A program made the position numbers and the translations under genes. A stretch of 64,000 nucleotides of DNA, taken from contig JADJRG010000022.1 of NCBI GenBank assembly GCA_016712315.1, forward strand, positions 1,058,522 through 1,122,521, written 5' to 3'. Below, one piece after another: positions 6,454 to 16,545 of this stretch. Numbering within the stretch: the stretch's first letter is position 1; each line of letters starts with the position of its first letter. The DNA is from Nannocystis sp. (GTDB taxonomy: Bacteria; Myxococcota_A; Polyangia; Nannocystales; Nannocystaceae). The notes under the pieces are model-generated. The model was not told the DNA's origin. It saw only the letters and a program-made list of their open reading frames with translations, and did not search any database.

Positions 6454-6918
6454 ATGACCCTTCACGCATCCTCCTGGGGCTCTTACGAGCTCGACGACTC
6501 CTGGACCGACGATACAGCGCACGTACTCCGGCGCGCTGGCGCGGACGGCTCGATCGAGACCTTGGTCGTGCACCGCGATCCTGGAGGCGCGGGCTCGACG
6601 GCCATGGAGTACGCCGAGAAGCAAAAGCTGCTGCTCGCGAGCCTTCCAGGTTTCGTGCTGCAGCACTCGTTGCCCTGCCAGTTGGACGGGATCGAGGCGC
6701 ATGAGCTCGCCTTCGCCTGGACCACGCCGAACGGCCCAATCGAGCAGGTACAGATCCAGGTGCCCGGACCAGACGGAATGGTCATGTTCACATCGACCGG
6801 CGCGCCGCGCCTCACGCCGGGTGGACGCGACGCGCTCAAGCGAGCGCTGCTCAGCGCGCTCATCCCCCCAACCCCGTCAACCCTGGATCGATATGCCCCT
6901 GGCAGCGAGACTCGGTGA
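6454..6918 (+). CDS. Small protein encoded directly upstream of, and overlapping, the prePAAR effector; candidate Eag-family (DUF1795-like) effector chaperone
   Basis: ATG at 6454 within ORF 6310..6918, about 154 aa, overlapping the next start by 26 nt. Its size, position and the pattern SYELDDSWTDDT…TLVVHRD…MEYAEKQ…LPGFVL…LDG are consistent with DUF1795/EagR-like chaperones, which characteristically precede prePAAR effectors. The family call rests on context and loose similarity. Confidence 0.4.
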   Translation: MTLHASSWGSYELDDSWTDDTAHVLRRAGADGSIETLVVHRDPGGAGSTAMEYAEKQKLLLASLPGFVLQHSLPCQLDGIEAHELAFAWTTPNGPIEQVQIQVPGPDGMVMFTSTGAPRLTPGGRDALKRALLSALIPPTPSTLDRYAPGSETR

Positions 6919-8302
6919 TCCGGTCGGCCATGACTTCGACTTCGAGGGCTTCGGGGCGCAGCTCGGCGCGTCCTTCGGCGCGGCGCTCGGGGCGGCCGCC
7001 GTGAGCGAGGTGGCGACGCGCGGAAGTATCGTCGTCACCGGCATCGGGTTCGTGGCTGGTGGGCTCGTCGGCGGCTATCTCGCGGGCCGAGCGGCCGAAA
7101 GAGCGCGAGGTCTCGTGATCAGTGAGGCGCGCCAGGCCGGCGCATGGCTGGGCGAGAAGATGGGTCGAAGCATCGGCGCCTGGCTCGAAGAGCACCTTGG
7201 GAGCTTCAAGGTCACGACCGGCGCGATCGTGGTGGGAGACTTCACTGTGCTCATTGAATCGATGCCCGCAGCCCGCTCATGCGTCGACTTCGCGGCGTGC
7301 TCAGATCACCCCACTACGATTCCCCCCGCGATTATCAAGGGGAGCGAGACCGTGCGGATTGGCCGGCAACCCGCGGCACGGGTCGGGGACACGGGGGCCT
7401 GCACCTTCGAGATCCTATCCGGCGCGCGGACTGTATATGTCGGCGGGGCCTCACACTTGTGCGCATGCGCGGCGCTGTGGAAGAAGTACCAGGACGAGGC
7501 CGAGGCGATCATCGTTCCCCACGACGATGACCCCCGCGCCCGCAATCGAGCGATCAGCGCCGCCTACGCAGATCTTTACCTCAACAACCCAGACTTCGTG
7601 TGGGCTGGTCTCGCAGCATATGCGAGCAAGCAGGTCGGATGCGCGATGGACAGCGCCACCCACGCGATCGACGTGGGTGGCAAGCTCGTGGGCGCCGGGA
7701 CGCCAGCCGCGCTGGTGTCGCCTCTTTCTGGCCTCGGGTTGGCAGGATACGGCCTCGGCGCCGCAGGTGCCGCCGCGTACACCCGTGACATGCTCGGGAA
7801 GGGCAACCGAGACCTTTTCATGGACATCTACCCGATTCACCGCTTCTACCAGGAGGAGGGCTTCGAACGAATGAAGGCCTGCGCAGGCGCCCGAACGCCG
7901 CCGCTCGAGCCCGAGGCCCTCGCCGGCTTCGAGGCGTTGACGCGCGGCGATCGCCGTGAGAGCTTGCGGCAGATCGCGTTTCACGAGCAGATCAATGTGC
8001 TCCAACCCTTGATCTACGATGATTACCTGTTGCGCAAGATCCTCGTCGCTAACGAGACTGGCGCCCCGCTGACCAGCCCGGCGAAGCTGGTGCTCGGCAG
8101 CGGGTGCGAGGACGGCCCGACGACCCACTTCAGCCGCGGATGGTTCAACAGCGGCAGTCAGGGAGACGTGCCTGAGCTATATGACGCGAGCGAGCGCATG
8201 AACTGGATTCTTCAGGACGCGACGCCCCTGTACGAAGAAGTGTTAGGCACCGAGAAGCACCTCGAGGATCTGGAGCAGATCAAGGACCAGGCGCCACCAT
8301 GA
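6893..8302 (+). CDS. T6SS-type prePAAR effector: N-terminal prePAAR motif (AARLGDPVGH = AARxxDxxxH), Gly-rich transmembrane region, PAAR domain (two PAAR motifs), C-terminal ~270-aa domain of unknown function (putative toxin)
   Basis: ATG 6893 in ORF 6701..8302, with N-terminus MPLAARLGDPVGHDFDF. The hydrophobic GASFGAALGAAAVSEVATRGSIVVTGIGFVAGGLVGGYLAG stretch precedes …ESMPAARSCVDFAACSDH…RIGRQPAARVGDTGAC…, the PAAR spike-tip family. The C-terminal domain (from about WKKYQDEAEAIIVPHDDDP to the end) could not be assigned. The stop overlaps the start of the next gene (ATGA). Confidence 0.75.
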   Translation: MPLAARLGDPVGHDFDFEGFGAQLGASFGAALGAAAVSEVATRGSIVVTGIGFVAGGLVGGYLAGRAAERARGLVISEARQAGAWLGEKMGRSIGAWLEEHLGSFKVTTGAIVVGDFTVLIESMPAARSCVDFAACSDHPTTIPPAIIKGSETVRIGRQPAARVGDTGACTFEILSGARTVYVGGASHLCACAALWKKYQDEAEAIIVPHDDDPRARNRAISAAYADLYLNNPDFVWAGLAAYASKQVGCAMDSATHAIDVGGKLVGAGTPAALVSPLSGLGLAGYGLGAAGAAAYTRDMLGKGNRDLFMDIYPIHRFYQEEGFERMKACAGARTPPLEPEALAGFEALTRGDRRESLRQIAFHEQINVLQPLIYDDYLLRKILVANETGAPLTSPAKLVLGSGCEDGPTTHFSRGWFNSGSQGDVPELYDASERMNWILQDATPLYEEVLGTEKHLEDLEQIKDQAPP

Positions 8303-8844
8303 TCAAGTCCTCGTATCCTCGCGTCGTCGCGGCGCCGCAGATGCCCCTCAGCGAGGTCATGGCGCGCTCGTCCGCGCAGATGAGCGTCCCTCGGGCGACG
8401 GGCGGGCTGTGCGCGGCGCAGCCGCTGCAGCCTCATGCATTCGAGATCGGCGACGCCAACGTCGGCCTTCGCCTCGACCCCGGCTGTTTCACCCTGCTAG
8501 GGCTCCTCGACGCCACTGTCGTGAGCATTCGCGTCTCACCTCAGCTCGACTACGTCGACGCGTACGCTGGCGCTGCGTTGCTCGAGCGCTGCGCCGCCCT
8601 GCTCGACGCCGCGACCTGGGAGCGTGACGGCTTGTTCTCCGCGGAACAAGCGCGCGTCACAGCCACCATCACCGGAGAGGCCCTCGCCGGGACCTGGCAC
8701 GCCCGTACCTGGACAACGCAGCTCCGGCTTCGACGCGTCCACACAGCCGCGGGCTCACCTGCTCTGGCGCTCGGAAAGCATCACGATCTCTTTCTCGTGA
8801 CCCTGTCCGTGAGCGGCGCTCACTCGGGCTGCCGAGCGCCGTAA
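8299..8844 (+). CDS. Candidate cognate immunity protein, translationally coupled to the PAAR effector
   Basis: The ATG at 8299 overlaps the effector TGA (ATGA), 181 aa, no recognisable domain. The assignment rests purely on the effector-immunity gene-pair architecture. Confidence 0.45.
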   Translation: MIKSSYPRVVAAPQMPLSEVMARSSAQMSVPRATGGLCAAQPLQPHAFEIGDANVGLRLDPGCFTLLGLLDATVVSIRVSPQLDYVDAYAGAALLERCAALLDAATWERDGLFSAEQARVTATITGEALAGTWHARTWTTQLRLRRVHTAAGSPALALGKHHDLFLVTLSVSGAHSGCRAP

Positions 8845-8863
8845 ACCCCGTATGCAGTCGCGC

Positions 8864-10345
8864 TCACTGCGGCAGGATCGCGCTCTTGATCTGCCCGCCG
8901 GTCATATCTGAGTACGTGTAGTGCTGGTTCGCGATCGGCACGAATTGCTTCGCGTTCGGGTTCAGCGGATCGATCTTCCACGCCCCCTCCCACTCGTCCA
9001 CCACCCAGACGTAGCCCTCGAGGTCGACGCTGATCCCGACCGGCGTCGAGCACGGGTTCAACTGGTGCACTTGCACCACCGTCGCCGAGTCCGCGTCGAT
9101 CTGCATCACCGCGCACTCGAAGTTCATCGCCGTCCAGATGAAGCCCTCCTTGTCCGCGCCGATCCCGCGGAAGCAGTCGTTCGTCCCCGGCACCGCCGCG
9201 AAGCTCTCGGTCATCGGGTCGAAGCGGTACACCGGCCCGGCGCAGCCCGCCGTCCACGCTCGGCCCTTCGCGTCGACCGTCATGCCGTAGAACTGGCTGT
9301 CGCCGGGCGACGTGTACTCCTTCAGCGCGTTGTTGTTCTTCGTCTCGATCTTGTACAAGTTGCCGCGCAGCCCGGTGAACCACACCTGCTCCTTCGAGTC
9401 GAGCGCCGCCCCGTACGGCCCCCACCAGTTGTCGCCGACCGACCAATTGTTCAGCTCCACTGTCTGCTCGATCGCACCTGTCCCACCGTTCAGCTTCGCC
9501 ATGTGAGCCACCCCCCAGCTCGGCCGGTAGCCCACCCACACCTTCGGGTTGATGAACGAGCAGCTGTCTTGGTCCCAGTCGCCTGGCGTCCACGTCACAC
9601 CGCGCGGCCCCGCGCCGTTCTCGCCGTCGTAGGGCAGCACGATCGACCAGAGCGTGCACTCCTCTTGCCCCCACGCCCGCAGATCGTTCGGGCTCGTCGA
9701 CGTGTCGATCATCCCGTTGTTGTTCAGGTCCTTGCAGTCCTCTGGGTCCGCCGCGATCGCCGTCACCCGCCCGGTCTCGCGGTTGTTCACCACCACGAAG
9801 CGTCCGTCCACGCTCACCGCCGTCCGCGAAGGGTCCTCGAAGCCCGGCCCGCTGCGGTAGCGCGCCAGCTCCTTCATCGTTTGAGTGTCGACCTTCGCGA
9901 TGCTCGACTCGTCCGTGTTCGCCACCCACAGGAAGCTCTTCTCCACGTCGCCCATGCCCATGCCGTCGCCTGGCATACACGGCTCGACCCCTGTGTCCTC
10001 GGTCGTCGTCCCGTCGCTCGTCCCTTCGCTCGTCCCCTCCGTCGTCCCCTCCGTCGTCGCCGCCGTCGTCGCGTCGGTCGTCGACGTACCCGCGCTCGTG
10101 CTCGTCACGCCGTCCGTCGTCGTCCCGGCGCTCGAGCTCGCGTCGCTCTCCGAGCCTGATCCGTCGCTCTCCGAGGCGCTGCTCGACGAAGAGCTCCCTG
10201 AGCTGCTCGACGTCGACGACGACGACGACGTCGACGTATCGTTCGTCGTGCCCGCCGTCTCTGAAGCGGAGGAGGTGCTGTCATCGCCGCAAGCCGCGGC
10301 CACAAGCGAGAGCGTCGATGCGAGGATCCAAGGGCGTGTACGCAT
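8864..10345 (-). CDS. Lipoprotein with long S/T-rich linker and a C-terminal beta-propeller-like repeat domain
   Basis: ORF 8864..10348, with ATG at 10345 giving MRTRPWILASTLSLVAAAC (lipobox). The linker is rich in S/T/D. The C-terminal region carries repeated VDxxGxxWxxxxxG-type blades. Repeat family uncertain. Confidence 0.7.
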   Translation of the reverse strand: MRTRPWILASTLSLVAAACGDDSTSSASETAGTTNDTSTSSSSSTSSSSGSSSSSSASESDGSGSESDASSSAGTTTDGVTSTSAGTSTTDATTAATTEGTTEGTSEGTSDGTTTEDTGVEPCMPGDGMGMGDVEKSFLWVANTDESSIAKVDTQTMKELARYRSGPGFEDPSRTAVSVDGRFVVVNNRETGRVTAIAADPEDCKDLNNNGMIDTSTSPNDLRAWGQEECTLWSIVLPYDGENGAGPRGVTWTPGDWDQDSCSFINPKVWVGYRPSWGVAHMAKLNGGTGAIEQTVELNNWSVGDNWWGPYGAALDSKEQVWFTGLRGNLYKIETKNNNALKEYTSPGDSQFYGMTVDAKGRAWTAGCAGPVYRFDPMTESFAAVPGTNDCFRGIGADKEGFIWTAMNFECAVMQIDADSATVVQVHQLNPCSTPVGISVDLEGYVWVVDEWEGAWKIDPLNPNAKQFVPIANQHYTYSDMTGGQIKSAILPQ

Positions 10346-10438
10346 CACAACCCGATAACACGAAGCTGCGCCGACCGCACTCGCGTCGCCGCGCCGCTCC
10401 GGCGCGCCCCGAGCAGATCCGCGCCGAGCCAGCCGCCT

Positions 10439-12244
10439 TCAGCTCAGCGCGTAGCCGCGCGCCTGCTTGCGGAACATCGCCGCGTAGAGGCCATCCGCGG
10501 CCATCAGCGCCTCATGGCTGCCCGACTCGGCCACGCCGCTCGCCTCGAGCACGACGATCCGGTCGGCCATCCGCACATTGGCGAATCGATGCGAGATCAG
10601 CAGCAACGTGCGCCCGCGCGCCAGCGCACGCACCCGCGAGAACACCTCGCCCTCGGCGTCGATGTCGAGCGCCGCGGTCGGCTCGTCGAGGATCAAGACG
10701 TCGGCATCTTCGCGCATAAACGCCCGCGCCAGGCTGATCCGCTGCCACTCGCCGCCAGAGAGCTCGACCCCGCCTTGAAACCACCGACCGAGCTGCGTGT
10801 GGATCCCCGCCGGCAACCCCGCCACCACCTCCGTCGCGCCGCCATTGGCCACCGCCGCCGCGATCCGCCCCTCATCTTCGACGCGCGCCGGATCGCCGAA
10901 GCCGACGTTCTCGCGCGCGCTGAGCTGGTACTGGTTGAAGTCCTGAAACACCACCGCGAGCCGGCGACGCAGCTCCTCGCGCGGCAGCGTCCGCAGGTCG
11001 CGGCCATCGAGCAGGATCCGCCCCTCGGTCGGCTCGTAGAGGCCGGCCAGCAGCTTGATGAAGGTCGACTTACCGGCGCCGTTGTGGCCGACCAGCGCGA
11101 CCGTCTCGCCGCGGGCGATCTGCAGATCGATGTTACGGAGCGCGAACACCGATTGATCGGGGTAACGAAAGCCCACCCCTTCGAAGCGGATCCCCGACTC
11201 CTCGCGCTCCGGGGCCGCGGCCAGCATCAGCGGCGCCTGCCCCCTCGAGATCGCCAGGAAGCTCAGCAGGTTCGACATATAGAGGTCGTGCTCATAGAGG
11301 CCGCCGACCGCCATCAAGATCCCCTGAAACGACCCCTGCCCCTGGCGAAACGCGAACGCGTACATTGTCATATCGCCGAGGCCGAGCGCCCCCGACGCCG
11401 CCTGCACCGCGATATATGCATAACAGCCGTAGAAAGACAGCGTCCCGAGCTGCGACAACAGGGCCACCCACCGCATCCGCCGGAGCGCCAGCGCACGCTC
11501 CTCGACCCACAGCTTCTCGCTCACCCCTTCATAACGCTCCAGCAGCGTCGGCGCGAGGCCCAACATCATCACCTCTTTGGCGTGCTCATCGCTCGCGAGC
11601 ACGTACTCGAGGTAGCCGAGCAGGCGGGCGTCGGTCGCCCGACGGTTACGCAGATCGAAGGCCGCCCTTGAGAAGCGCACCTCGGCGAGCGCCGCGGGGA
11701 TCGCCGCGACCAGCAGCAGCAGCACCGCCGCCGCGCTGTAGCTGAAGAGCAGCGCCGCGAAGCCGACGAAGGTCAGCGTCGCGCTGGCGAGCCCGAGCAG
11801 CTCCGACGCGACCGCCAGCGGCCGATGGCCCGCCTCACGCCGCGCCCGCGTCAGTTGGTCGTAGAACTCCGGGTCCTGAAAGTCGCGCAGCTCGAGCGTC
11901 TGCGTCTTGCGCAGGATCTCGAGGTTGACCGCGAGCCCGAGGCGCACCCCCAGCAGCGCCCGCAGCATGCTCCCGCCGCGGCTCGCGGTCATCATCAGCG
12001 CCGCCAGCATCATCTCGACCAGCACCCAGGTCAGCGCGAGCTCGACGTCCGCCGCGACCACCGCGTCGACGATCGCCTTGCCGACCCACGCCATCGCGAT
12101 CGGCGTCGCCGCCGCGACCGCGAGCACGCCGATCCACAGCGACGCCGTCGCCGGCGAGCTGCGCCAGGCCATCCGCACCGCCGTGGCCCCGCGCCCGAGC
12201 CGCGCCCGCAGGCCGCCTCCGTCGATCGGCGTCGCCTCACGCAT
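10439..12244 (-). CDS. ABC transporter, fused permease/ATP-binding protein (exporter family); probable export component of the adjacent graspetide cluster
   Basis: 601 aa, with an N-terminal TMD of six predicted helices. The C-terminal NBD has Walker A GHNGAGKST, signature LSGGEWQRISLARAF and Walker B ILDEPTAALD. Stop is 12 nt from the start of the ATP-grasp gene. Confidence 0.9.
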   Translation of the reverse strand: MREATPIDGGGLRARLGRGATAVRMAWRSSPATASLWIGVLAVAAATPIAMAWVGKAIVDAVVAADVELALTWVLVEMMLAALMMTASRGGSMLRALLGVRLGLAVNLEILRKTQTLELRDFQDPEFYDQLTRARREAGHRPLAVASELLGLASATLTFVGFAALLFSYSAAAVLLLLVAAIPAALAEVRFSRAAFDLRNRRATDARLLGYLEYVLASDEHAKEVMMLGLAPTLLERYEGVSEKLWVEERALALRRMRWVALLSQLGTLSFYGCYAYIAVQAASGALGLGDMTMYAFAFRQGQGSFQGILMAVGGLYEHDLYMSNLLSFLAISRGQAPLMLAAAPEREESGIRFEGVGFRYPDQSVFALRNIDLQIARGETVALVGHNGAGKSTFIKLLAGLYEPTEGRILLDGRDLRTLPREELRRRLAVVFQDFNQYQLSARENVGFGDPARVEDEGRIAAAVANGGATEVVAGLPAGIHTQLGRWFQGGVELSGGEWQRISLARAFMREDADVLILDEPTAALDIDAEGEVFSRVRALARGRTLLLISHRFANVRMADRIVVLEASGVAESGSHEALMAADGLYAAMFRKQARGYALS

Positions 12245-12256
12245 CAGCGAGGAGCC

Positions 12257-13273
12257 CTACGCGCGGAGCGTCCGCCGCGCCCCCGGCTCGCCGAGCAGCA
12301 CGTCCGCGAGCGCCTCGGAGAGGGGAAAATTCGGCGAATTGTACTGTAGCCAGAAGCACTCGCCGGCCGGGTTCGCCTCGAGGAACACGTGGCGCCCGCT
12401 CGGCTCGACGATCATGTCGATCGCGCTGTACTGCATCTCGATCCGCTCCATGTAGCGCTCGATCGCCCGCTCGATCTCCGCCGGCAAGGTATAGCCGATC
12501 CACGACTGTAGCAGCGTCACCCCGCGCTCACGCCAGTCGATCTCCGCGCCACTGGTCCGCTGCGAGTCGACCGCCGCCGTGAAGATCCGCCCGCCGATCA
12601 CCGTGATCCGCAGCTCCAGCGCCTTCTCCACCTTCTCTTGAAACACCATCGGCGAGTAGCGCAGGCCGTCCAGCTTGCCCAGGTGCTCGCGCGACAGCGC
12701 CGTCGTGAAGACCACCTGCTCGACCCCCTGCTCGTCGATGATCGGGAACGCCGACAGCATCTTCGCCACCACCCCGTGCGGGCACGACTCGATGAACGCG
12801 CGCGCCTCCGCCGGATCGTTCGTCATCAGCGTCCGCGGGGTCGCCATCCCCAGCTCCCGCGCGAGCCGCAATTGAAACGGCTTATGCCCGCGCGCGCGCA
12901 CCCGCTCTGGCGGGTCGAGCACGAACCCCGGCGCCGCCGCCATCAGCCCGAAGAGCAGCGCCTTCGACTCGGTGACGCAGCCGTGGCGGAGCTGCTTGTC
13001 CATCGACATCGGCAGCCGCTCGGCGATCCGCGCGCGGCGGTACCAGATCGCGTCCTCCGGGCCCACCCGCAGCTCCTCCGCGCCGCAGCGAAATCGCAGC
13101 GCCTCGCCGTCGTCGTCGAGCGCCAGCGACGCGTGCGCCTCCATCGGGAAGCGATCCGTATCAAAGCGCATGACCTCGGCCCCGCGCCGCTCCAGCAGCC
13201 CGCGCAGCTCCTTGAGCATCCCGGTGATGTCCTCCGAGTGCGTCACCATCACGACCTTCTTCTTCGTCTTCAT
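12257..13273 (-). CDS. ATP-grasp ligase, microviridin MdnB/MdnC-like (graspetide macrocyclase)
   Basis: 338 aa, MKTKKKVVMVTHSEDITG…, of the same family as the adjacent ORF. The start overlaps the upstream stop (ATGA at 13270-13273). Belongs to a precursor–grasp–grasp–ABC operon on the minus strand. Confidence 0.8.
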   Translation of the reverse strand: MKTKKKVVMVTHSEDITGMLKELRGLLERRGAEVMRFDTDRFPMEAHASLALDDDGEALRFRCGAEELRVGPEDAIWYRRARIAERLPMSMDKQLRHGCVTESKALLFGLMAAAPGFVLDPPERVRARGHKPFQLRLARELGMATPRTLMTNDPAEARAFIESCPHGVVAKMLSAFPIIDEQGVEQVVFTTALSREHLGKLDGLRYSPMVFQEKVEKALELRITVIGGRIFTAAVDSQRTSGAEIDWRERGVTLLQSWIGYTLPAEIERAIERYMERIEMQYSAIDMIVEPSGRHVFLEANPAGECFWLQYNSPNFPLSEALADVLLGEPGARRTLRA

Positions 13274-14253
13274 CGCTCGCTCCTCTCACGCAGCTTCGCT
13301 CGCGCCAGCCCGAGCAGGGCCTGCGCGATGGCCTCACCGATCGGCAGGCCGAGGTCTCGCTCCAACATCCCCCACTCGCCGTGGGGGTTGACTTCAAGGA
13401 ACACGTAGTCGCCGCTCGGCGTGACGATCATGTCGATCGCCCCCTGTCGCAGCCCGAGCTGGCGCATCAACGCCGCGAGGCGCTCGTGCACCGCCGTCGG
13501 CAGCGCGTGCGCCTCCCAGCTCGCCGTCGACTCGTGGCGCCAGTCGACGCCGCATCGGGCCCCGTCGAGGCCGCCGACCAGCGCGCGGCCGTCCACCCAG
13601 GCGATCCTCAGCTCCATGGCCTTTGGGACATATCGCTGGAACATCATCGGGCAGTGGCGCAACCCGCCGAGCGCCTCTAGATCTGCGGGCCCGATCATCC
13701 GGGTCGGCAAGCCGCCGCCGCCCGCCATCGAGTAGCCGAGCGACGTCTGCAGCTTCGCCACCACCTGCCCGTCGTGCGCGCCCCAGAAGCGCCGCGCCGC
13801 CGCCGGATCGGCGGTGATCAGCGTCGGCGGGATCGCCAGCCCCAGCCCCTGCGCCAGCCGGAGCTGACGCGCCTTGTTCTCGGCGCACCGATTCGCGTCG
13901 ATCCCGTCGATCCACGGCGCGTCGTCGAGCAGGTCCAGCAGCCCGCGCAGCGCCGTCATCGACTCGCGCAGCGCCGCCTCGCGGTGAGGCGCGGCGAGGC
14001 CCGCGTCTAGGCGCGGCGGCCACAGCCGCCACAGCCACACCGCGTCGACCGTCAGCGCCTCCCCGTCGAGCAGCAGCCGCCCGCCCGCCGCAGGGTCGAG
14101 CTCGCCGCTCAGCGCGAGCGCGAGCGGGAAATCGTCCGTATCGAGCCGCAGCGGCCGCGCGCCGGCCCGCAAAAGGGCGCCCGCGACCCTCTCGGTGCAG
14201 AATGGCTCCTGGCTGTGCGTGAGCAGCAGGACGCAGGGTTGTTCGCGCATCAT
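13270..14253 (-). CDS. ATP-grasp ligase, microviridin MdnC/MdnB-like (graspetide macrocyclase)
   Basis: 327 aa, MMREQPCVLLLTHSQEPF…, paralogous to 12257..13273. Lies immediately downstream (36-nt gap) of the precursor peptide gene. Confidence 0.8.
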   Translation of the reverse strand: MMREQPCVLLLTHSQEPFCTERVAGALLRAGARPLRLDTDDFPLALALSGELDPAAGGRLLLDGEALTVDAVWLWRLWPPRLDAGLAAPHREAALRESMTALRGLLDLLDDAPWIDGIDANRCAENKARQLRLAQGLGLAIPPTLITADPAAARRFWGAHDGQVVAKLQTSLGYSMAGGGGLPTRMIGPADLEALGGLRHCPMMFQRYVPKAMELRIAWVDGRALVGGLDGARCGVDWRHESTASWEAHALPTAVHERLAALMRQLGLRQGAIDMIVTPSGDYVFLEVNPHGEWGMLERDLGLPIGEAIAQALLGLARAKLRERSER

Positions 14254-14289
14254 GTCACCTCAAGAGAGATCGGGGGCGCCCGGCTCACC

Positions 14290-14493
14290 TTACCCGTCGC
14301 TGTCTTTGAACCAGGTCGTCGACTCGTCGTCGTCGCTCGGGTACTTCTTCGTGCACGGCGAGTCGAGGCAGTGGTACGTGGGCGCACCGCCGCCGTTGGT
14401 GCTCTGCGCCGGGTCGCTCTGCGACGTCAGGAGGTGCGCGAAGAAGGGCAGGTCAGCCCCTTCGCTCTGTGGATCCATGATTTTCTTCGACAT
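14290..14493 (-). CDS. Graspetide (microviridin-class) precursor peptide, 67 aa: leader with PFFAHLL recognition motif, core TKKYPSDDDE
   Basis: MSKKIMDPQSEGADLPFFAHLLTSQSDPAQSTNGGGAPTYHCLDSPCTKKYPSDDDESTTWFKDSDG. The leader motif matches the conserved microviridin PFFARFL. The core matches T-x-K-Y-P-S-D-x-(D/E)-(D/E), with the residues that form the T1-D7 and S6-D9 esters and the K3-E10 amide. There is an AGGA ribosome-binding site 7 nt upstream of the ATG. It is the C-terminal third of ORF 14290..14721. Confidence 0.75.
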   Translation of the reverse strand: MSKKIMDPQSEGADLPFFAHLLTSQSDPAQSTNGGGAPTYHCLDSPCTKKYPSDDDESTTWFKDSDG

Positions 14494-14628
14494 TGTTCGT
14501 CCTTCTCTCTTACTTCCCCACGTGGAGGGCACAATCGCCCGCCACAACTTGACGGAGCGCCCCACGCGTAACCAACAGGCCACGCGCGTAGGAGCGCCCC
14601 GACACCCTTCCAAAAGAGTGAAGAGCGT

Positions 14629-14655
14629 CGATCCGCGCGTCGCCGGCGCGGATCG
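14629..14655 (-). promoter_or_regulatory. Perfect 10-bp GC-rich inverted repeat (CGATCCGCGC-N7-GCGCGGATCG) between the 14796..15119 gene and the precursor gene; possible terminator, attenuator or operator
   Basis: Read directly from sequence. On the minus strand it is followed by a moderately U-rich stretch (ACGCUCUUCACUCUUUUGG). Confidence 0.25.
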
Positions 14656-14795
14656 GGGCCCATGACTCGCCCGCCCCTCGTGCCCGCACCATACGCCCAA
14701 GCTGTCGCTCCCCGACCCCACCTGGATCTAACAGCGCACATACGCGCGGCGACGGCCCCTACCGCGCGCCCGGCGATTGAGCCGCCGCCGCGCCC

Positions 14796-15119
14796 TCAGC
14801 CCTCTTGCTCGCCGATCATCTCCTCGCCGCTGAGGATGCTGCCCCAGTTGTTGGCGTCGTTGAAGGTGAGGCTGAGCGGCTTCTCGTAGCGCAGCGTCCC
14901 GATCACCTCGCCGAAGCGCGCCTCGTGGAAGCGCAGGTACAGCGCGCCGTTCGCGATCTTCTGGCTCGGCGGCGCCGTGAACCCGTCGCGATAGAAGTAG
15001 AGCGTGCCGCGGTGCGTCCTGCCCTCGAAGCAGTTGATGACCGCGGTCAGGCCGTTCGTGGTGTCGAGGGTGTTGTGAAACACCGAGTAGCGGTCGATCG
15101 TGTAGTTGGTGGTAGCCAT
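14796..15119 (-). CDS. Hypothetical small protein (107 aa) with N/Y/T/F-rich composition atypical for the locus
   Basis: ORF MATTNYTIDRYSVFHNTLDTTNGLTAVINCFEGRTHRGTLYFYRDGF… has no out-of-frame-type low complexity. Immediately upstream of the graspetide operon on the same strand. Confidence 0.5.
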   Translation of the reverse strand: MATTNYTIDRYSVFHNTLDTTNGLTAVINCFEGRTHRGTLYFYRDGFTAPPSQKIANGALYLRFHEARFGEVIGTLRYEKPLSLTFNDANNWGSILSGEEMIGEQEG

Positions 15120-15255
15120 CGCCGCGATCCTGGCGCAGACCGCAGAGGGCCGTCAAACCGGCGGCCTCATACCGCTCAAGGGCGCAAAAAAGAGCGGACC
15201 GCTGGGGCCCGCTCTCGTGTTTGTTCTTGTTGCAACTTTGAGCGGCGAGCGCCGC

Positions 15256-16545
15256 TCAGCGCATCGTCGGCTCATCGCGGCGCCGCAGGAACGCTGGGAT
15301 CTCGCTCGGATCCGCCGCCGCCTCGCTGCGCGCCCACCGATCGGCCGCTGGCGCCTCACGCGTCGGCCGCGCCGCCGCCGCCTCGCGTGCATACGCCCCC
15401 GAGCTCTGCGACCCGCCGAGCAGCGCCGCCGCCTGCGCCCCGCGCACCGCGCTGGCCGCGGACGTCGCCCGCGCCGACGGACCACCAGGCACCTGCACCT
15501 GGATCACCCCGCCGCTCGCGCTCTGGCGGCGGCGACCTTGGTGGCTGCGGATCACCTGCTCCAGCTCCTCTTCGGCTGGCGCGTGGCGATCGAAGCCGGT
15601 CGCGATCACCGTCAGCCGCAGCATATCGCCCATATTCGGGTCGATCACCGCGCCGAAGATGATGTTGCAGTCCTCGTGCGCCGCCTCTTGGATCAGCGAA
15701 GCCGCCTCCTCCACCTCGTGCAGGCGCAGGTCGGGGCCGGCCGTAATGTTGATCAGGATCCCTTGAGCCCCGTGGATCGTCACGTCCTCGAGCAGCGGCG
15801 ACGAGATCGCCTGCTGCGCCGCGGCCAGCGCCCGCCCCTCGTCGGACGCGATCCCCATGCCCATCAACGCCCGCCCTTGGCCCGACATGATCGTGCGCAC
15901 GTCCGCGAAGTCGACGTTGATGATCCCCGGCACTGTGATCAGGTCGGACACCCCTTGCGTCGCGTGCTGCAGCACCTCGTCCGCGAGGCGGAACGAGTCG
16001 AGCAAGCTCGTGTTCGCCGAGGTCACTGACAGCAGCCGATCGTTCGGGATCGTGATCAGCGTGTCGACCGCCTTCTCCAGCTTCTCGATCCCCATCTCCG
16101 CGAAGCGCATCCGCCTCCGGCCTTCGAAGCGGAACGGCTTCGTCACCACGCCCACCGTCAGCGCCCCGAGCTCGCGGGCCACCTGCGCGATGATCGGCGC
16201 CGCCCCCGTGCCCGTGCCGCCGCCCATACCACCTGTCACAAAGACCATGTCTGCGCCTTGCAGCGCCTCCGCGATCGCGTCGATGCTCTCGAGCGCCGCC
16301 TCGCGCCCCTTCTCCGGGTTCGCGCCGGCGCCCAGGCCGCGCGTGATCTCCTTGCCGAGCTGGATCGTGATCCCGGCCAAGCTCTTCTCGAGCGCCTGCA
16401 CATCGGTGTTGGCGACGATGAACTCGACCCCCTCCACCTTGTTATTGATCATCGTATTGACGGCGTTGCCGCCCGCGCCTCCCACGCCGATCACCTTGAT
16501 CTTGGCGGCTGGGGGCAGAGATTCGTCGAGGTCGAAGTACGCCAT
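15256..16545 (-). CDS. ftsZ: Cell division GTPase FtsZ
   Basis: MAYFDLDE…[15 protein letters not shown]…[13 protein letters not shown]…, the full tubulin/FtsZ signature with a C-terminal variable tail. An AT-richer promoter-like region lies upstream (16546..16810). Confidence 0.95.

Follow-up and report, generated by a model that had tools for sequence, protein, structure and literature searches.

Gene content of the locus

We analysed a 64,000-nucleotide stretch of DNA (hereafter the window; positions 1,058,522 to 1,122,521 of contig JADJRG010000022.1, Nannocystis sp. assembly GCA_016712315.1), in which an initial annotation had placed a biosynthetic cluster for a microviridin-like graspetide (an ω-ester peptide). 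Four open reading frames (ORFs) lie there in series, all on the minus strand, and encode a 67-aa precursor (14290..14493), an MvdC/MdnB-type ATP-grasp ligase of 327 aa (13270..14253), an MvdD/MdnC-type ATP-grasp ligase of 338 aa (12257..13273) and an ATP-binding cassette (ABC) exporter of 601 aa with fused permease and ATPase (10439..12244). A gap of 36 nt separates the precursor stop (14290) from the start of the first ligase (14253), the two ligase ORFs overlap by 4 nt, and 12 nt lie between the end of the second ligase (12257) and the ABC start (12244); the coordinates, strand and junctions of the initial annotation were thus reproduced. The purine-rich stretch AGAGAGAAGG (14501..14510, minus strand), which reads as a putative ribosome-binding site, ends 7 nt 5' of the precursor ATG. 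A promoter and terminator scan of 8500..15400 gave nothing exceeding shuffled expectation, and the precursor gene is the only one in the 64-kb window, where neither a PFF leader motif nor a TxKxPSD core occurs in any other ORF.

All four genes are already named by the NCBI Prokaryotic Genome Annotation Pipeline (PGAP) in this metagenome-assembled genome (MAG; MBK8264661 to MBK8264666), with exact protein matches. The precursor, identical to MBK8264664.1, appears there as 'microviridin/marinostatin family tricyclic proteinase inhibitor', the ligases as 'MvdC family...' ATP-grasp ribosomal peptide maturase and 'MvdD family ATP-grasp ribosomal peptide maturase', and the 601-aa ORF as 'ABC transporter ATP-binding protein'. 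Because of these names, recognition of the cluster type is not new. The product, proposed earlier as a new myxobacterial congener, belongs to an uncharacterised Nannocystaceae/Polyangia clade.

The best overall explanation of the locus is a self-contained, four-gene cassette of the microviridin class (graspetide group 1) belonging to a Nannocystis-type myxobacterium, to which we assign a probability of roughly 0.85. That the cluster is of the microviridin class and makes a tricyclic cage is very likely indeed.

Family membership of the precursor and the ligases

The precursor translation (MSKKIMDPQSEGADLPFFAHLLTSQSDPAQSTNGGGAPTYHCLDSPCTKKYPSDDDESTTWFKDSDG) matched the microviridin/marinostatin family model NF033738 over residues 16–57 (36.6 bits, cutoff 26, E = 6e-9), and its match to Pfam Inhibitor_I10 was sub-threshold. 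Homologues formed 118 clusters at 90% identity and, where named, came from Nannocystis, Enhygromyxa, Nannocystaceae, Polyangia, Polyangiaceae or Sorangium. We counted conservation over 122 clade precursor sequences anchored on the core. The leader motif PFFAHLL (residues 16–22; 14428..14448, minus strand) is the counterpart of the microviridin PFFARFL helix, as the initial annotation had proposed on the basis of the motif itself; the NF033738 match and conservation across the clade bear this out. PFFAHLL itself occurs in 111 of 122 precursors, and the Arg of PFFARFL is replaced by His in 111 of 122. For the role of this type of motif we rely on PMC8939145 and PMC12848669. Leader and core are joined by a Gly/Pro/Ala-rich linker of variable length and sequence, Gly-rich yet lacking a fixed GG site ahead of the conserved core in the clade sequences. 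The microviridin core motif TxKxPSDx(D/E)(D/E) is present as TKKYPSDDDE at residues 48–57, and no (KxxE)n repeat occurs upstream of the cage in the precursor.

Both ligases contain the MvdD pre-ATP-grasp domain PF21068 (E = 4e-22 in 13270..14253 and 3e-24 in 12257..13273), and comparisons with NCBIfam models and PDB entries assigned them reciprocally to the two microviridin ligase types. The ligase at 13270..14253 scored 333 bits with TIGR04185 (MvdC) and 208 bits with TIGR04184 (MvdD), and its top PDB match was MdnB 5IG8 (E = 1.3e-77, 265 bits, 45% identity). For the ligase at 12257..13273 the preference was reversed (MvdD 361 bits, MvdC 238 bits), the top PDB match being MdnC 5IG9 (E = 2e-78, 267 bits, 41% identity) and the next one CdnC 7MGV (E = 1e-59, 205 bits). 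We predict from these assignments that the former is the ω-amide (lactam) ligase acting on K50–E57, and that the latter is the ω-ester ligase for all lactones. More than 120 relatives of the ester ligase were found at 60–99% identity. Family membership of precursor and ligases is far above chance, and the cluster type and gene roles given in the initial annotation are upheld by NF033738, PF21068 and the reciprocal MvdC/MdnB and MvdD/MdnC matches.

The MvdD-like ligase has a His, H197, where MdnC has Asp192, and this His occurs in 119 of 120 clade ligases. Asp192, along with Glu191, has been named as a leader-recognition residue of MdnC (PMC12848669). The His in the leader and the His in the ligase may represent a coupled change at the leader–enzyme interface.

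Exporter and conservation of the cassette

The 601-aa ABC protein matched ABC_tran (E = 3e-33) and is MsbA-like over residues 41–594, with no match to a Peptidase_C39 domain. To describe the surroundings of the cassette we used 23 related loci from a scan of one genome per species, which span Nannocystis, Enhygromyxa, Nannocystaceae, Polyangia and Polyangium and include the cultured N. punicea FL3, N. pusilla Na p29, N. radixulma, N. bainbridge, Nannocystaceae ST9 and three Polyangium species; Polyangium fumosum DSM 14668 is a cultivable strain with the cassette. A full-length ABC homologue (alignment over 50% or more of the query) adjoins the ligases in 17 of the 23 loci, and most of the other six contigs stop short. 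The unit of precursor, MvdC-type ligase, MvdD-type ligase and ABC gene is kept in every locus long enough to judge; in the Polyangium loci the ABC gene lies upstream of the precursor instead.

The cassette is a complete conserved unit, and nothing else is conserved with it in the 23 loci. Their flanks hold lineage-specific Ser/Thr kinases, a sigma-54 activator and shadow ORFs only, and neither a radical-SAM/SPASM gene nor any other tailoring gene is conserved beside the cassette in related loci. A GNAT N-acetyltransferase is missing from the cassette and from its flanks in the window, in line with the lack of MdnD noted by the initial annotation, and from the related loci as well.

Conservation of the core and predicted cross-links

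The cage core (T48-K-K50-Y-P-S53-D54-D-D56-E57; 14323..14352, minus strand) is nearly fixed across the clade. Among the 122 sequences there is no variation at T, K, Y, P, S, D7 and D9; 119 retain E10, and 121 have Lys between T and K. The topology predicted by homology to microviridins and myxomiditides consists of two esters, T48–D54 and S53–D56, and one amide, K50–E57. In myxomiditides the links Thr9–Glu15, Ser14–Asp17 and Lys11–Glu18 were established by mass spectrometry and nuclear magnetic resonance, and closure of the small lactone by Asp at core position 9 is thus experimental (Ser14–Asp17; PMC12848669). The topology that had been proposed for the core CTKKYPSDDDESTTWF (T1-D7, S6-D9 and K3-E10) therefore holds up by homology; the TxxxxD elements upstream and downstream of it had been missed, and 'tricyclic' is probably an undercount of the rings. 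Acidic residues at core positions 8 and 9, which had been presented as distinctive, are the norm outside cyanobacteria, and the decapeptide TKKYPSDDDE occurs three times in P0316, an unrelated, non-myxobacterial multi-core precursor.

N-terminal of the cage, the core is extended by T39-Y-H-C42-L-D44-S-P-C47 (14353..14379, minus strand), a TxxxxD element interleaved with a Cys pair. P38, T/S39, C42, D44 and C47 are each present in 122 of 122 clade precursors, residue 46 is P or E, and the intervening Y, H, L and S are near-frozen. From P38 to E57 (PTYHCLDSPC followed by TKKYPSDDDE) the sequence agrees in full with TxxxxDxxxTxKxPSDxD[DE], down to the length of the 3-residue spacer. This motif goes back to work on the chryseoviridin family (PMC8939145) and fits 'class 2' microviridins (PMC12848669), among which the TxxxxD element of chitinoviridin A2A has been established experimentally to close a further lactone on the N-terminal side of the cage (PMC12848669). 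An extra N-terminal lactone T39–D44 is, on this pattern of conservation, a probable feature of the product.

A profile search of precursor space, covering 1.84 billion representatives, found the N-terminal TxxxxDxxx to be common among non-cyanobacterial precursors and the Cys pair to be confined to the myxobacterial clade. The initial annotation had described the two Cys as flanking the core, which is incorrect, as C42 and C47 are both N-terminal of the TxK core. We see about an even chance that they form a disulfide; our literature search turned up no natural microviridin reported to have one.

C-terminal of the cage lies a second TxxxxD element, T59-T-W-F-K-D64 (14302..14319, minus strand). 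Two distinct tail types follow E57 in the clade, STTWF(K/G/N)D(S/A/R)D(G/W) and PTS(P/T)(T/L)WD(K/R), and across them T/S is kept at +12 in 119 of 122 sequences, T/S at +13 in 121 and D at +17 in 119, while positions +14 to +16 (residues 61–63) vary freely over 73 distinct tails. The three exceptions to the T/D pair come from a Sorangium/Polyangium subclade whose corresponding segment is C-Y-(S/T)-Y-K-P-Y-C, in which T and D are both lost and a C-x6-C pair is found instead. Replacement of a T/D pair by a C-x6-C pair at one spot would be expected if the segment must be a closed loop, which is suggestive and not proof. A terminal xT[ST]xxxD after the last core was also returned by the profile search for a few non-myxobacterial precursors, with the tail ends PSDGDEVTSPKLDNY (P0271), PSDREEVTSPKMDLY (P0274) and PSDSDEATSKFLDDFRR (P0338). 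We regard a C-terminal lactone from T59 (or T60) to D64 as possible, at somewhat less than even odds. The full architecture, in which TxxxxD lactones flank the cage on both sides (five ATP-grasp rings) and a disulfide interlocks with the N-terminal one, all with two ligases, is tentative and, taken as a whole, doubtful. If true, it would be a new topology: no earlier microviridin would have had a native disulfide or a ring on the C-terminal side of the cage, and Polyangium/Sorangium would have exchanged the C-terminal lactone for a second disulfide in the course of evolution.

The same subclade differs elsewhere as well. Polyangium spp. (L020-L023) and Sorangium (P0140, P0144, P0145) have a PLFA(H/Y)LL leader and a CY(S/T)YKPYCD tail, and the subclade ligases are 43–51% identical to those of the window.

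Several points weigh against the cassette and ring assignments made above. Both ligases scored under the NCBIfam equivalog cutoffs (333 vs 425 and 361 vs 475), and because of this they are best described as divergent members of their families. With His in place of the leader Arg and of MdnC Asp192, details of recognition differ from those of the microviridin systems, and a search of the flanking regions in related loci did not reveal a leader peptidase. Every cross-link is drawn from conservation and homology, and two ligases would need to form up to five rings. The extra TxxxxD rings of the characterised class-2/III systems sit N-terminal of the cage, and our literature search found no demonstration of a ring C-terminal of it. 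An alternative role for the conserved tail T and D would be in contacts with the protease, in export or in leader/follower recognition, and the invariant Cys could also have another function.

Alternative interpretations

The product could be a plain tricyclic microviridin, with only T48–D54, S53–D56 and K50–E57 linked and at most a disulfide besides, and with the PTYHCLDSPC and STTWFKDSD flanks serving as uncross-linked recognition, follower or target-contact sequences. Myxomiditide precursors do have follower peptides that are dispensable for modification (PMC12848669), and the ligases of the window are nearer to cyanobacterial MdnC (267 bits) and MdnB (265 bits) than to CdnC, for which the score was 205 bits. 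Such sequences would not obviously account for the invariance of T/S39 and D44 at the spacing of the established TxxxxDxxxT motif (PMC8939145, PMC12848669), nor for the retention of T59 and D64 across two otherwise unrelated tail types. The number of ligases, two being canonical for three rings, fits the plain tricyclic product; however, PMC10125368 describes CdnC as a single ester ligase of MdnC type that makes many rings, six esters in chryseoviridin. Because CdnC alone makes six esters, two ligases are no obstacle to more than three rings. We consider a product limited to the cage rings unlikely, and one with four or five ATP-grasp rings and a disulfide, rather than three rings, to be probably what the clade makes.

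An alternative that concerns only the Cys is that they take part in enzyme-made links, either ω-thioesters formed by the ATP-grasp ligases or thioethers, instead of a spontaneous or Dsb-made disulfide. The invariance of C42 and C47 and the position of C42 inside the TxxxxD element are compatible with this, as is the proposal that conserved Cys of other graspetide precursors are thioether donors (PMC8939145), but the lack of a conserved tailoring gene beside the cassette argues against it, and we found no report of ATP-grasp thioester rings in the literature. Cys five residues apart in an exported peptide would readily give a disulfide, and the gain of a second Cys pair in the Polyangium subclade fits pairwise disulfides. 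Enzyme-made links at these Cys are highly improbable.

The remaining possibility, that the ligases are RimK/GshB-type enzymes of primary metabolism next to a chance small ORF in GC-rich DNA, recalls the JGI/IMG automatic names of some members ('glutathione synthase/RimK-type ligase-like ATP-grasp enzyme') and is refuted by RimK scores of ~23 bits (TIGR00768, cutoff 143) against 333–361 bits for MvdC/MvdD, by a PDB RimK-like match of 1.6e-4 against 2e-78 for MdnC, and by a small ORF that passes a curated family model and belongs to a conserved protein of 118 clusters, always beside ligases. The comparison of RimK/GshB with MdnB/C that the initial annotation had suggested thus favours MdnB/C.

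Proposed biosynthesis and activity

The following steps are modelled on homologous systems; gene content, family membership, conservation pattern and synteny are direct observations. Both paralogous ATP-grasp ligases would bind the precursor through the PFFAHLL leader helix. The MdnC/MvdD-type enzyme would phosphorylate side-chain carboxylates and form the ω-esters T48–D54 and then S53–D56; most likely it would also make the T39–D44 ring, and possibly the downstream ring from T59 (or T60) to D64. The MdnB/MvdC-type enzyme would then close the K50–E57 ω-amide. The peptidase-less ABC exporter would carry the peptide out of the cytoplasm, C42 and C47 could oxidise outside to a disulfide interlocking with the T39–D44 ring, and the leader would be cut by a protease encoded elsewhere, with no N-acetylation.

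The residue x of TxK, here K49, is presumably the P1 residue, as in the microviridin J–trypsin complex. Microviridin J, with Arg at the P1 position, inhibits trypsin (PMC12848669), and this inhibition together with Lys at the x-position leads us to predict trypsin-type specificity. On this analogy the product would be a substrate-mimicking serine-protease inhibitor with Lys49 at P1 and trypsin-like targets; for the specificity itself we hold the arguments for and against to be evenly balanced.

Neighbouring genes and regulation in related loci

The 107-aa ORF at 14796..15119, the 494-aa secreted propeller protein at 8864..10348 and ftsZ were considered as further cluster members and rejected, as they stand beside the cassette in 0 of 23 related loci. 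The 107-aa ORF (minus strand, between ftsZ and the precursor) is without a Pfam or NCBIfam match, is annotated as hypothetical in the MAG, and has homologues that were seen in close relatives only. The 494-aa protein is encoded downstream of the ABC gene on the same (minus) strand. Its signal resembles that of a lipoprotein (…SLVAAAC), and a long linker rich in Ser and Thr accompanies a beta-propeller that weakly resembles Vgb lyase and NHL repeats. Farther along, on the plus strand, a gene for a 533-aa protein with PAAR motifs and a DUF2515 domain (6701..8302) overlaps by 4 nt with a 181-aa ORF of no family match (8299..8844), and the two together resemble a secreted, PAAR-tipped toxin and its possible immunity gene.

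In one lineage of the related loci (L003, L007, L008, L009, L011 and L013) a good sigma-54 −24/−12 element, TGGYGCR-N4-TTGCS, lies 96–136 nt 5' of the precursor, and genes for an FHA-domain sigma-54 activator and a Ser/Thr kinase-TPR protein are found directly upstream (L007:8346-9755 and L007:5630-8341). This arrangement suggests that a kinase and an enhancer-binding protein control precursor expression in that lineage. No sigma-54 promoter was found 5' of the precursor of the window, and the activator and kinase genes are likewise absent from the window.

Significance

Microviridins are potent and engineerable serine-protease inhibitors, and the characterised ones are nearly all cyanobacterial, with a few from Bacteroidetes. 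The only myxobacterial examples are the myxomiditides, reported in 2026 and of a different subtype. A 2025 pan-genome survey listed antiSMASH 'microviridin' clusters as conserved and uncharacterised in Archangium, Cystobacter and Sorangium (PMC12766979), and our literature search returned no paper on the core strings described here or on a Nannocystis graspetide or microviridin. The present clade is large and strongly conserved (118 precursor clusters) and occurs in cultivable strains, and its minimal cassette of four genes and no tailoring enzymes should be easy to reconstitute. Should the extra lactones and the disulfide prove true, they would show the reach of a single MdnC-type ligase and add a new scaffold. 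A conserved, exported protease inhibitor is also a reasonable lead for the biology of predatory, protease-secreting myxobacteria. The cluster changes no concept of the field, and the more novel proposal of lactones on both sides of the cage would, if true, be of specialist interest.

Comparison with known systems

Marinostatin (Alteromonas/Algicola) shares with the precursor described here the NF033738 family and a similar core, xTMRYPSDSDE, in which Asp 7 and Asp 9 form two esters (PMC10125368). It is bicyclic, has Arg for the lactam Lys and Met at P1, and lacks flanking TxxxxD elements and Cys.

Chryseoviridin (CdnA3/CdnC, Chryseobacterium) and chitinoviridin A2A (Chitinophaga), which make up Ahmed class III or Li class 2, share the arrangement TxxxxDxxxTxKxPSDxD[DE]. 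Their TxxxxD lactone is made by an MdnC-type ligase (PMC12848669, PMC10125368). Systems of this type are found in Bacteroidetes and have double-glycine leaders and C39-peptidase transporters (PMC13039773), whereas the cassette here has neither a C39 domain nor a fixed double-glycine site ahead of the core, and its ligases score nearer to MdnC than to CdnC. Both peptides lack the Cys pair present here, and chryseoviridin has no lactam, for which K50, E57 and an MdnB-type ligase are all present in our cluster.

Myxomiditides A and B (myx cluster of a deep-sea Myxococcota MAG; PMC12848669) are likewise microviridin-class peptides from Myxococcota with a Ser–Asp small lactone and a Lys–Glu lactam. 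Like the product predicted here, they have rings in addition to the cage, and a follower sequence lies at the C-terminus (PMC12848669). The extra rings of myxomiditides are N-terminal (KxxE)2 lactams, for which a third ligase clade, MyxF, is responsible; the system has four ligases altogether, in contrast to the two ligases, TxxxxD elements and Cys pair of our cluster, which has no KxxE.

Relative to the cyanobacterial microviridins (mdnA-E in Microcystis, mvdA-F in Planktothrix), the cassette is set apart by its myxobacterial host, by the lack of a GNAT (MdnD/MvdB), which is common and not universal there, by PSDDDE in place of PSDWEE, and by His for the leader Arg and for MdnC Asp192. It is also set apart by conserved core extensions of 10 residues on the N-terminal side and ~10 on the C-terminal side, with their extra T..D pairs and the Cys pair. 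The mdn genes are ordered mdnA-B-C-(D)-E, and the order here, precursor-MdnB-MdnC-ABC, is the same, with the ABC protein in the place of MdnE. Both systems further combine a PFFxxxL leader helix and a TxKYPSDx(D/E)(D/E) core with a pair of ATP-grasp ligases, one for esters and one for the amide, which both have a pre-ATP-grasp domain and are 41–45% identical between the systems, and with an ABC transporter that lacks a peptidase domain.

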